A stretch of 21,753 bases of DNA from a virus (lineage: Duplodnaviria; Heunggongvirae; Uroviricota; Caudoviricetes), in the IMG/VR virus record IMGVR_UViG_2526164691_000017, positions 1 through 21,753 of that record, one strand, 5' to 3'. Made by a program: the position numbers and the translations under genes. Positions 12,880 to 16,833 of the stretch are shown here, piece after piece (the stretch's first letter is position 1; the number at the start of each line of letters is the position of its first letter). The notes beneath the pieces were generated by a model that searched no databases, was not told the DNA's origin, and saw only the letters and a program-made list of their open reading frames with translations.

Positions 12880-13035
12880 TTACTCCTCAGGTTCGTAAGC
12901 TGTGAAGACAGCGACCTCCGTCTGGCCGGTTCGGATTCGTACCTCGCAGAGGTCTTTCCTCGTTACCAGTGCCGTCACTATGACGGTTAAACAGATGACG
13001 ATCAGGGCGATTAACATCGCCTTTTGCTGCTTCAT
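12880..13035 (-). CDS. hokD: Hok-family type I toxin (51 aa)
   Basis: From the internal Met of ORF 12880..13092: MKQQKAMLIALIVICLTVIVTALVTRKDLCEVRIRTGQTEVAVFTAYEPEE, a single-TM Hok/Gef peptide matching K-12 HokD as remembered; AAGGAG RBS upstream. Confidence 0.8.
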   Translation of the reverse strand: MKQQKAMLIALIVICLTVIVTALVTRKDLCEVRIRTGQTEVAVFTAYEPEE

Positions 13036-13758
13036 AGCCTGCTTCTCCTTGCCTTTCGGCACGTAAGAGGCTAACCTACATATGTCTAGCATGAAATTGG
13101 CCTCAGATTAATGTTAAGCGTCTTGCAGGACGCGTAATGTTAACTGGGGCTTTTCTCTATCTGCCGTTGGTGTTCATGCCCGAGGCAGATAGCCTCAAGC
13201 ACCCGCAGCCATTCTACTTAACTACCGTTACCTCGCCAATGTGAAATCAGTCAGAAAGGCGATCCATAAGAACAATAGCAAGACAATAAATCGCCATTAC
13301 AGCCGTAATAGCCAGCGCACATTTGAGAACCAGCACCACAACCTCCTGTATTGGACGTAGACCAGTCCTGATGAATATGAGGCTGTCTCGTCAGTGATTC
13401 AATACAACTATTGGGTATAGTTTCTCTGATTTTTTCTGTGGAAATGGGGCACAACCACTAGTCACCACCAGCACTTCTTTTAATACGCAAAGTCCGACAC
13501 AAGCTAACCTTCTAGTCCGCTTTGAGCGAAAAACAGCCATAATTTAGTGCCACGTATATAATGATAGAGCTATTCAAGCTAGCAATTCACATGTAAAAAT
13601 TCAGAGGGTAGATGCACATAGTTATAAATGTTGGCTCCATCGACAAATTGCGGTCTCAAGTACATTTTAGACTGGCCCCCTGAATCTCCAGACAACCAGT
13701 ATCACTTAAATAAGTGATAGTCTTAATACTAGTTTTTAGACTAGTCATTGGAGAACAG

Positions 13759-14124
13759 ATGATTGATGTCTTAGGGCCGGAGAAACGCAGACGGCGTACC
13801 ACACAGGAAAAGATCGCAATTGTTCAGCAGAGCTTTGAACCGGGGATGACGGTCTCCCTCGTTGCCCGGCAACATGGTGTAGCAGCCAGCCAGTTATTTC
13901 TCTGGCGTAAGCAATACCAGGAAGGAAGTCTTACCGCTGTCGCCGCCGGAGAACAGGTTGTTCCTGCCTCTGAACTTGCTGCCGCCATGAAGCAGATTAA
14001 AGAACTCCAGCGCCTGCTCGGCAAGAAAACGATGGAAAATGAACTCCTCAAAGAAGCCGTTGAATATGGACGGGCAAAAAAGTGGATAGCGCACGCGCCC
14101 TTATTGCCCGGGGATGGGGAGTAA
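13759..14124 (+). CDS. insC: IS2 transposase OrfA (InsC), 121 aa
   Basis: [56 protein letters not shown]: HTH plus leucine-zipper OrfA; A6G slippery heptamer (GGGCAAAAAAGTGG near 14068-14081) for the -1 frameshift into insD. Confidence 0.9.
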
Positions 14125-14987
14125 GCTTAGTCAGCCGTTGTCTCCGGGTGTCGCGTGCGCAGTTGCACGTCATTCTCAGACGAACCGATGACTGGATGGA
14201 TAGCCGCCGCAGTCGTCACACTGATGATACGGATGTGCTTCTCCGTATACACCATGTTATCGGAGAGCTGCCCACGTATGGTTATCGTCGGGTATGGGCG
14301 CTGCTTCGCAGACAGGCAGAACTTGATGGTATGCCTGCGATCAATGCCAAACGTGTTTACCGGATCATGCGCCAGAATGCGCTGTTGCTTGAGCGAAAAC
14401 CTGCTGTACCGCCATCGAAACGGGCACATACAGGCAGAGTGGCCGTGAAAGAAAGCAATCAGCGATGGTGCTCTGACGGGTTCGAGTTCTGCTGTGATAA
14501 CGGAGAGAGACTGCGTGTCACGTTCGCGCTGGACTGCTGTGATCGTGAGGCACTGCACTGGGCGGTGACTACCGGCGGTTTCAACAGTGAAACAGTACAG
14601 GACGTCATGCTGGGAGCGGTGGAACGCCGCTTCGGCAACGATCTTCCGTCGTCTCCAGTGGAGTGGCTGACGGATAATGGTTCATGCTACCGGGCTAATG
14701 AAACACGCCAGTTCGCCCGGATGTTGGGACTTGAACCGAAGAACACGGCGGTGCGGAGTCCGGAGAGTAACGGAATAGCAGAGAGCTTCGTGAAAACGAT
14801 AAAGCGTGACTACATCAGTATCATGCCCAAACCAGACGGGTTAACGGCAGCAAAGAACCTTGCAGAGGCGTTCGAGCATTATAACGAATGGCATCCGCAT
14901 AGTGCGCTGGGTTATCGCTCGCCACGGGAATATCTGCGGCAGCGGGCTTGTAATGGGTTAAGTGATAACAGATGTCTGGAAATATAG
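14082..14987 (+). CDS. insD: IS2 transposase OrfB (InsD), DDE catalytic domain, 301 aa
   Basis: ORF track; overlaps insC in the -1 frame; IS3-family integrase-core protein with the DDE triad (the final Glu in the [10 protein letters not shown] segment). Confidence 0.9.
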
Positions 14988-15045
14988 GGGCAAATCCACA
15001 TTTATTAATGTTGCCCCCGCATTAACAAATCATCAAGGTGACGAC

Positions 15046-16833
15046 ATGGACGATATTAATATCAGCCTCGACGAACTTAACACTATTGATTTATCCCCCT
15101 TAATCCAGAGTAAGCTGCCAGTTACCTGCTTTGATATCACAAAGTATCTTTCTAGCCTAGGTGATGGAAGAGCGGAGATAAGACTGCTAACCCATATTTG
15201 CGGTTTTCACTTTCGTCCCGAAAATCCACAGGTACCATTTGGTCCGTGCTTTCAAAGCAGCCAAGGTAGATCTGCAATTCCGGATGACATTAACGGGTTG
15301 TCGCTGGAGGTACTTTCTCAATTTTGCCCGACGATAGAGCTACCCGAACTTCAAGCTCGTATTGCTGATACACTTTGGGTTCGTAAAATTGGTGGAATCC
15401 GTTTTCCTTTGCTGGCAGTCCGTGCTTATTATGCGTCCAGTATAGCTATTATGACATCGCAAGGGACGTGGGTTAGTGCTTTAGAACGCCTAGAGCGTGC
15501 GCTTAGGCTGTGTTGTTTTTTTCGAAAGCATACTGATTTCAGGGATGAATTTGATCAGCTTTCGGCACATCTACTAGCAGAGTATGAACGTACCAGAGAA
15601 CAAGGCGATTCACCTTATCCGCTGCGACTCCTGCAACTCGATATCGACTGTAAAGTGAGTGAGCCATCTTTTATTGCCCAGGAACTCCTGTTTCTGACAA
15701 AAAACTATCTGGCTCAAAAATTATTTTCATTTGCCGTCGATGCCTGTAAAACCGCAATCCCGATTGCGAATAGGTGCTGTGACAGAGATACACAGTTTGA
15801 ATTCTGGCGGCTTCTTGCCGATACACATCTGGAAGAGTCAAAATTCCAAGATGGCGGTATGATTTCGGCAGCCTGCATGCAGAATGCTATTGAAGCACTG
15901 GCTAATATTCCAGGAACCCGAATAGAACGTCTTGCGCTGTATGAAGAAATGCGTGATTACCAAATCGAATCCCGTCACCAGATGTCTATCCTTCAGTCTC
16001 CCCCTCAAGATATTAGTGAGATTGTCCATCAAGCCAAGAGTCGGGTAGTCGGAAGAGATTTGTTTGATATGGTTTTCAGACTTGCGATGCTGGTCTGTCG
16101 GCCAACCAGCATTGAGAGACTTAAGGCTCAAGCAATAGAACAAAAGGCCAACAGCATAGCTTGGATGTTTGGATCAACACATATTGATCATGAGGGAATG
16201 ACACTTGCTCGCATACCCGCAGGATTGGGGATTGATGATGCAAATGGGGCAGTTATTTGGCCCATAATGATGACGAGAATGCGTATCGACCATGAGTTGG
16301 CAGTAGCTGGGCAAATTATTCCTGCTACAGATGAGATCACAATGAAATATCCAATCTCGGAGGCGTTTTTTCGCGATATGTTCATCAATCATCCCTTCAT
16401 CCCGTTTGGGCATGAAGAGTTTTTCATCAAGGGTATGGTTTGCGGTTTCAATGGAGATTTTATGACGGCATGCCACGTGTTGATTCCCCAGATCGAAAAT
16501 AGTCTGAGATATGTGGCTAAAATTAAAGGTGAGGAACCATCGCAGCTTCACGGGGACGGTTCGCAAGAGCGAAATGGACTCAAGGGATTACTAGATAATC
16601 CACTGATTATTGAAGCTTTCGGCGTAGACATAATTGGCAATCTTCAGGCCTTACTGGTAGATAAAATCTATGGTGATTTACGAAATCAACTAGCTCACGG
16701 ATATGTGCCTGCCGGTTACTACAATCAACCTCCCTGCATTTTTGCATGGTGGCTTGTATTGCACATTCTAATGAACCCTACGGCGAGATACTGGCAAGCC
16801 ACTTATGGCCAAGAGAGTGAGGCTCAGACTTAA
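15046..16833 (+). CDS. Large uncharacterised cargo protein (595 aa) with C-terminal HEPN-like R-x4-H motif; candidate defence/abortive-infection effector
   Basis: ATG at 15046 preceded by AAGGTGA RBS (the ORF-track start at 14962 lies inside IS2 and is an artefact). RNQLAHG encoded at 16681-16701. Plus-strand gene convergent with the minus-strand early operon; GC content appears below the flanking genes by eye. No K-12 Qin counterpart recalled here. Confidence 0.7.
   Translation: MDDINISLDELNTIDLSPLIQSKLPVTCFDITKYLSSLGDGRAEIRLLTHICGFHFRPENPQVPFGPCFQSSQGRSAIPDDINGLSLEVLSQFCPTIELPELQARIADTLWVRKIGGIRFPLLAVRAYYASSIAIMTSQGTWVSALERLERALRLCCFFRKHTDFRDEFDQLSAHLLAEYERTREQGDSPYPLRLLQLDIDCKVSEPSFIAQELLFLTKNYLAQKLFSFAVDACKTAIPIANRCCDRDTQFEFWRLLADTHLEESKFQDGGMISAACMQNAIEALANIPGTRIERLALYEEMRDYQIESRHQMSILQSPPQDISEIVHQAKSRVVGRDLFDMVFRLAMLVCRPTSIERLKAQAIEQKANSIAWMFGSTHIDHEGMTLARIPAGLGIDDANGAVIWPIMMTRMRIDHELAVAGQIIPATDEITMKYPISEAFFRDMFINHPFIPFGHEEFFIKGMVCGFNGDFMTACHVLIPQIENSLRYVAKIKGEEPSQLHGDGSQERNGLKGLLDNPLIIEAFGVDIIGNLQALLVDKIYGDLRNQLAHGYVPAGYYNQPPCIFAWWLVLHILMNPTARYWQATYGQESEAQT

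Follow-up and report, generated by a model that had tools for sequence, protein, structure and literature searches.

A complete IS2 element has recently inserted, by simple transposition, into a Qin-type prophage of Escherichia coli DEC9B, and the insertion is private to this strain. The element lies just upstream of a cargo gene that encodes a candidate defence protein of the HEPN type. We propose that the likeliest outcome is reduced or deregulated expression of the cargo gene, which would have been uncoupled from its own control region, and we hold this to be a fairly probable reading. A hybrid promoter of the ampC type, formed between the right end of IS2 and the flanking DNA, is not supported.

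The window, by which we mean the whole stretch of 21,753 nucleotides that was analysed, is identical to the matching part of the DEC9B chromosome (NZ_CP074760.1), with window position 12900 corresponding to position 2718550 of that record on the + strand. The prophage is a Qin-type lambdoid element that adjoins rspB. Its - strand carries, in order, cro, ydaT, two genes of the replication region, hokD, rem, ydfU and the antiterminator gene Q, and then the lysis genes, terminase and portal. The cargo gene is on the + strand, opposed to the phage early-right operon. Homology to the Qin prophage of K-12 ends at window position 13049; where K-12 Qin has relBE, DEC9B has a complete hok/sok leader and then the cargo module. 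The leader is an Rfam match on the - strand (13030-13204; sok RF01794, 113 bits) upstream of the annotated hokD coding sequence (12880-13035, - strand), and makes up the neighbouring module across the intergenic region. Thousands of genomes have this hok flank, as do several phages (mEp460, Tritos), but the shared stretch ends at about 13530-13540; on the far side of the cargo gene, homology picks up again at about 16922. Judged from these break points, the cargo gene is a typical moron, i.e. an added gene that forms a unit of its own, with a length of about 3.4 kb and putative limits near 13535 and 16922. The module has about 170 bp of upstream DNA of its own, with a GC content of 36%, and IS2 falls inside this stretch.

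The IS2 element, a member of the IS3 family, occupies 13668-14998 on the + strand (1331 bp). It is 100% identical, at 100% coverage, to copies annotated as ‘IS3-like element IS2 family transposase’, and such identical annotated copies number in the thousands. A second IS2 in the DEC9B chromosome is also 100% identical to the window copy, and the DEC9B record has 14 IS2 places. The left terminus at 13668 reads TAGACTGG... and the right terminus at 14998 reads ...AAATCCA; with the target DNA included, the junction sequence runs from CATTT into TAGACTGGCCCC... and from ...GGGGCAAATCCA into CATTT. When the ends are compared, both inverted repeats are intact. The left repeat (IRL, 13668-13709) has 42 bp and starts with TA, the right repeat (IRR, 14958-14998) has 41 bp and ends with CA, and they are imperfect repeats of each other (TAGACTGGCCCC... 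against the reverse complement TGGATTTGCCCC...), in agreement with the literature (PMC3299598).

The internal features, all on the + strand, are those of an intact element. The weak extended -10 promoter PIRL is at 13715-13723 (TGaTAGTCT, in which TGAT is bp 48-51 of IS2; position after PMC3299598). The orfA frame (13759-14124, 121 aa) matches HTH_Tnp_1, the orfB frame (14082-14987, with its stop TAG at 14985-14987) matches HTH_21, rve and rve_3, and the A6G heptamer of the -1 frameshift is at 14076-14082 (PMC3299598). In the RefSeq annotation, 13759-14987 is a single transposase made by a programmed frameshift. The earlier note on this DNA had described a full-length IS2 with both transposase frames and the A6G heptamer, and each of these points is borne out by the boundaries, the identity to annotated copies, the domains and the RefSeq record. 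The element is IS2 by its identity, by its inverted repeats, by orfA and orfB with the A6G -1 frameshift, and by a 5-bp duplication relative to the empty site.

The duplication consists of a left CATTT (13663-13667) and a right CATTT (14999-15003), which directly abut the element; the empty sites have just one CATTT. In ATCC 25922, the sequence at window positions 13638-13667 runs straight into that starting at 15004; IS2 is absent and CATTT occurs once. This Qin-type locus is in the same state in about 150 other E. coli genomes. Of 5426 complete E. coli genomes, DEC9B alone fully covered a 4.1-kb query across the element. Many others gave two-piece matches spanning 2765 bp (4101 - 1331 - 5), namely ATCC 25922 and its relatives and isolates of bovine, porcine and human origin. 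The flanks of ATCC 25922 run colinear with those of DEC9B and differ from them by one SNP over 2765 bp. It is this piecewise matching that confirms the empty site; an exact-string reconstruction of 600 bp found no match because of the one SNP. The perfect repeat that the earlier note had seen at the ends of IS2 is thus a true target duplication by the empty-site comparison, and IS2 is not ancestral here. The suggestion of a recent simple insertion likewise stands, because the single-CATTT site is found in about 150 genomes and the insertion in DEC9B alone. An active IS2 would have been copied and pasted into what is probably the 5′ control region of the DEC9B prophage moron.

The gene downstream of the element (15046-16833, + strand) encodes a protein of 595 aa (WP_000340969.1). 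It matches the Pfam families DUF7380 (3e-34) and, at aa 484-573, DUF4209 (3e-8); the latter match includes RNQLAH at aa 546-551, an Rx4H form of the catalytic HEPN motif Rx4-6H. DUF4209 has been classed as a HEPN RNase-type domain, in the DUF4209 / C6orf70 family (Anantharaman et al. 2013, PMC3710099). The protein also matches the PADLOC candidate system PDC-S39 over nearly its full length (E = 2e-102). A search of NCBIfam gave no match, the PHROG matches are to families of unknown function, and a sequence search of the PDB gave one weak, non-significant and uninformative match. In the literature searched, PDC-S39, DUF7380 and DUF4209 appear as family-level predictions, and we found no report of RNase activity or of an anti-phage phenotype.

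The coding sequence of this gene is unchanged, and the protein accession in DEC9B is that of the empty-site strains. The annotated start, ATG at 15046, is conserved in homologues and is preceded by a Shine–Dalgarno sequence, AAGGTGA (15035-15041, + strand), that is invariant in homologous loci. The right end of IS2 is 47 bp upstream of this ATG and in the same orientation as the gene, as had been claimed; both are on the + strand, and the orfB stop is 58 nt from the cargo ATG. An open reading frame that extends from IS2 into the gene had also been put down to the junction. It is indeed an artefact of the junction, of 28 codons and not the 85 that were given, as there is an in-frame stop at 14959 and a GTG at 14962.

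We aligned the upstream DNA with that of homologous loci from Brenneria (84% aa identity) and from viral contigs (82-97% aa). Upstream homology starts at window position 13588, which in the empty allele lies 122 nt from the ATG. A conserved block (13588-13656, + strand) is kept in homologous loci down to 82-84% aa, and in DEC9B the element sits between this block and the gene. The most conserved element of all is a core, GGGTAGAAGCACATAG, at 13606-13621. Conservation is poor near the IS2 target; an invariant TTATT at the point of insertion is the exception, and it stays beside the gene through the target duplication. The same is true of an 11-nt inverted repeat (ATTTATTAATG / CATTAACAAAT, with a 9-nt loop; 15000-15030, + strand), which is located just upstream of the Shine–Dalgarno sequence.

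A repeat search identified a further feature that straddles the insertion. This is a 17-nt direct repeat on the + strand, with a first copy TTATAAATGTTGGCTCC at 13622-13638 and a second copy TTATTAATGTTGCCCCC at 15002-15018. In the empty allele 44 bp lie between the two copies; in DEC9B the distance is 1380 bp. Exactly these 44 bp are missing from the alleles L021-L023; the stretch includes the IS2 target and is therefore dispensable. Neither the 17-nt repeat nor the 11-nt palindrome recurs elsewhere in the prophage, e.g. as operators.

Candidates for the native promoter were ranked with a sigma-70 weight matrix (PWM). Four of these are on the + strand, CAGCCA-17-TATAAT (13534, with the -10 at 13557), TTCACA-17-TAGAAG (13586, -10 at 13609), TTCAGA-17-TATAAA (13600, -10 at 13623) and TCGACA-15-TACATT (13640, -10 at 13661). 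In this ranking, in which none is decisive, all candidates that are wholly upstream of the ATG lie 5′ of the insertion or span it. The sole matrix candidate downstream of the insertion is TTGCCC-17-CAAGGT (6.98). It overlaps the Shine–Dalgarno sequence and cannot serve the cargo gene, because it would start transcription at or after the ATG. A strict consensus scan of the empty and the filled alleles gave no + strand promoter, and a search for one promoter conserved across the homologous loci found that the -10-like strings TGTAAAAAT, TATAAA and TATTAA are kept only partly. The comparison with related prophages that had been proposed to reconstruct the empty site and the native promoter has thus succeeded for the site and assigned no single promoter.

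What these features mean for transcription we infer from their arrangement. IS2 would part the gene, its Shine–Dalgarno sequence and the small inverted repeat from the conserved block and from the plausible native promoters, at a distance of 1.4 kb in the filled allele. Uncoupling appears to be the better supported effect, because the conserved block and every native promoter candidate are upstream of the insertion or across it. Some residual transcription of the cargo gene is plausible, because IS2 is co-oriented with it. Such expression would come from read-through, with the upstream native promoters firing into the IRL and a contribution from PIRL, which is weak and repressed by OrfA (PMC3299598, PMC3219604). 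The read-through transcripts would leave the right end of IS2 into the cargo gene. Our scan predicted no + strand terminator between orfB and the cargo gene. Furthermore, the fold of 14940-15075 has no extra stability relative to shuffled sequence (z = -0.07), with no sign of a terminator or riboregulator in this segment.

Read-through, or an outward promoter that has gone unrecognised, could even give normal or raised cargo expression. In the first case the insertion would be nearly neutral, with the native upstream promoter or promoters and PIRL reading through the co-oriented element and the level and phenotype of the cargo gene roughly unchanged. We think this unlikely, although it deserves some weight. 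Besides the shared orientation and the lack of a predicted intrinsic + strand terminator in or after the right end of IS2, the 58 nt between the orfB stop and the ATG leave scant room for the loading of Rho, and the Shine–Dalgarno sequence, ATG and coding sequence are all as they were. However, an extra 1.3 kb with a poorly translated, frameshift-dependent orfB would favour Rho-dependent polarity, and OrfA represses PIRL, itself a weak promoter (PMC3299598). The copies of the 17-nt repeat have also been separated and the conserved block shifted 1.4 kb from the gene, and we continue to favour reduced or deregulated expression.

The second case, an outward promoter, is the one for which IS2 is known. 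When the ends of IS2 are joined in a minicircle, the TAGACT at the terminus of the IRL serves as the -10 of the junction promoter Pjunc, together with an outward -35 in the IRR (PMC3299598, PMC3219604). Pjunc is functional only with a spacer of 17 bp, made up of IRR sequence and one junction base (PMC3299598, PMC3219604); with a spacer of more than 17 bp it is reported to be completely non-functional (PMC3299598). IS2 in such an orientation has been reported to activate ampC, acrEF and neoR (PMC9330008), and IS2 fusion promoters are documented (PMC3219604). By analogy, the -35 in the IRR could combine with ATTTAT, TTTATT or TATTAA in the flank (15000-15008) and switch the HEPN gene on or up. 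The orientation is right for this, and the AT-rich flank directly after IS2 holds several -10-like strings. The outward -35 hexamer would be TGGAAA (14977-14982, + strand), a position that we derived from the geometry of Pjunc in two papers by the same group (PMC3299598, PMC3219604), in which 16 nt of IRR and 1 bp give the 17-bp spacer.

The flanking DNA does not complete such a promoter. The hexamer 17 bp from TGGAAA is ATTTAT, which matches at 3 of 6 positions and has no A at position 2 of the -10, and the hexamer at 18 bp, TTTATT, also lacks this A. On a simple home-made sigma-70 weight matrix, which is crude, they total 0.46 and 3.3, respectively, where Pjunc scores 8.77 and lac P1 8.7; about 3% of all window positions score at least 4. 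Two strings that look more like a -10, TATTAA and ATTAAT, come 20-21 bp after TGGAAA, and Pjunc is reported to be inactive when its spacer exceeds 17 bp (PMC3299598). A consensus scan of the junction between IS2 and the gene also gave no + strand promoter. An outward -35 in the IRR does face the gene, but it finds no usable -10 at the required spacing of 17 bp, and for this reason activation of the ampC type seems very unlikely. The earlier note had left two possibilities, that the insertion switches the gene on or that it uncouples it. Switching on through a hybrid promoter fares badly on these scores (0.46 and 3.3 against 8.77), and uncoupling is, as far as the arrangement of the locus suggests, the better supported branch.

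The element may also be considered from the side of the phage. It is opposite in orientation to the early-right operon, as judged from gene order and strands. IS2 is classically polar in one orientation. As an antisense insertion in the early-right path (from cro, ydaT and the replication genes through to hokD, rem, ydfU and Q, on the - strand), it might act as a polar block that lowers the expression of Q and with it prophage induction. We rate this as a slim prospect. In the empty allele, a - strand transcript already has to pass a terminator-like hairpin (13312-13293) and about 2.5 kb of cargo DNA, which is antisense and untranslated, so a further 1.3 kb would alter little. Moreover, hokD has a leader and promoter region of its own, and a promoter-like - strand sequence at the junction, TTAATA-16-TATATT (PWM 7.5), could feed leftward transcription. 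A polar effect on the early-right transcript is possible and probably minor, and it is compatible with the uncoupling of the cargo gene as the main explanation.

The single SNP in the flanks is an A>T substitution at 13613, inside the conserved core. It is found in one of 153 genomes, DEC9B, and each of the nine other distinct upstream alleles has an A here. The substitution and the IS2 insertion are 55 bp apart and both are private to DEC9B. By a post hoc estimate, one random substitution would fall within the 122-nt upstream region with a probability of about 4%.

Other carriers of the locus have changes of their own. Two pig isolates have a 19-bp tandem duplication that spans the same CATTT. 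OkiPb01717 has an IS2 of independent origin, inserted in the opposite orientation at 13330-13334 and flanked by a CCAGC duplication, and IS1, ISEc23 and another IS3-family element are found in or beside the gene in other carriers.

These observations raise the possibility that the private SNP and the IS events reflect recurrent selection on the expression of the HEPN (PDC-S39) gene, e.g. for relief of toxicity, or that GGGTAGAAGCACATAG and the 17-nt repeats form an undescribed cis-regulatory element for this candidate defence family. We put this forward as a tentative idea and a rather improbable one. The same events may instead be plain decay of a prophage accessory locus, which the data cannot separate from selection.

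In itself the insertion is an event of a classical and ordinary kind. IS2 is among the best-known insertion sequences of E. coli, the public DEC9B record already has an annotation for this copy, and it is routine for IS elements to insert beside prophage accessory genes. The locus could be of use as a natural allele series, with an empty site, an SNP, an IS2 at -47, a 19-bp duplication, a 44-bp deletion and IS-disrupted genes. Such a series could probe the regulation and the host cost of an uncharacterised HEPN gene that is a candidate for defence (PDC-S39).

It remains to compare the locus with known systems. The element agrees with IS2 of E. coli K-12 (ISfinder/RefSeq) in its 1331 bp, 42- and 41-bp inverted repeats, TA...CA ends, A6G heptamer, rve (DDE) domain and 5-bp duplication; there is no difference in the element itself, and the insertion site alone is specific to the strain. 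The cargo protein shares DUF4209 with its Rx4H motif with the HEPN proteins of the DUF4209/C6orf70 family, and it matches the profile of PDC-S39, which is itself a prediction, so that a defence role is that of a candidate. The hybrid promoter that IS2 made at ampC (Jaurin and Normark 1983, via PMC9330008) is alike in that the right end of the element faces the gene and provides an outward -35 in the IRR. At ampC, however, this -35 is 17 bp from a functional resident -10, whereas here the corresponding string is ATTTAT, which lacks the A at position 2, and a promoter so formed is predicted to be much weaker than Pjunc. The likeness to ampC thus breaks down at the decisive sequence test, and for the present insertion no resistance-type selection is known. 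The insertion would also resemble the general class of IS insertions that disconnect prophage accessory genes from their promoters or are polar on them, in which, as in DEC9B, the coding sequence is left intact and the element separates the gene from the control region upstream of it.

Insertion sequences have struck the cargo locus in other strains as well. One case is the OkiPb01717 locus, where an independent IS2 (3436-4766 of L003) lies in the same intergenic region as the DEC9B copy, at the window-equivalent position 13330-13334. This element has the opposite orientation to the DEC9B copy, from which it differs by two nucleotides, and is flanked by a CCAGC target duplication. The cargo gene itself is split by an IS3-family element in FHI_NMBU_11 and contains ISEc23 in three MEI strains. 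It is truncated by IS1 in HCP8S3_I1, with a deletion that reaches through to dicB, and is flanked by IS1 copies in PigCaeca_1.

Upstream of the gene, these last two strains, both pig isolates, carry a 19-bp tandem duplication, TCTCAAGTACATTTATTAA. It is equivalent to window positions 13654-13667 plus 15004-15008, and therefore includes the CATTT that IS2 targeted in DEC9B. The alleles found on three viral contigs (L021-L023, 97% amino acid identity) lack exactly 44 bp between the 17-nt direct repeats (window-equivalent 13622-13665), thus the upstream region occurs in both one-repeat and two-repeat forms. An additional 7-bp repeat, TTCAAGC, is found farther upstream in the same three contigs.

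When DEC9B is compared with ATCC 25922 across the 2765 bp of IS2 flank, the sole substitution is an A>T change at window position 13613. This change is private to DEC9B (one of the 153 carriers of the locus). The position falls within the conserved core GGGTAGAAGCACATAG, and all nine other distinct upstream alleles share the same base there.

The insertion junction also forms an inward-facing promoter-like site on the minus strand (15008-14981), directed antisense into the element, in which 16 bp separate TTAATA, contributed by the flank, from TATATT, contributed by the right inverted repeat of IS2. The site scores 9/12, with a PWM score of 7.5, and promoter-like matches of this kind are no more numerous in the region than chance would predict.

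On the other side of the intergenic region lies hokD (12880-13035, minus strand), with a full hok/sok-type leader at 13030-13204 on the same strand (Rfam sok, 113 bits). Upstream of the hok promoter region, empty and filled alleles alike have a hairpin that resembles a terminator and leads into a run of Ts (13293-13312, minus strand). This hairpin would act on minus-strand transcripts arriving from the phage early-right operon.

The cargo protein is also encoded, at 99% identity, by a contig labelled 'MAG: Bacillota bacterium' (L008). This contig is probably E. coli prophage DNA that has been mis-binned into a Bacillota MAG.

The Qin prophage of K-12 itself hosts a truncated IS2 (IS2E, 10844-11551 of L004), which adjoins intQ and matches the right-hand 708 bp of the window IS2 (14293-15000) at 99.7% identity. 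Since K-12 Qin also carries an IS2, Qin-type prophages have been hit by this element repeatedly. Homology between K-12 Qin and the window at the hokD leader stops at 13049, and K-12 has relBE where the window has the cargo module.
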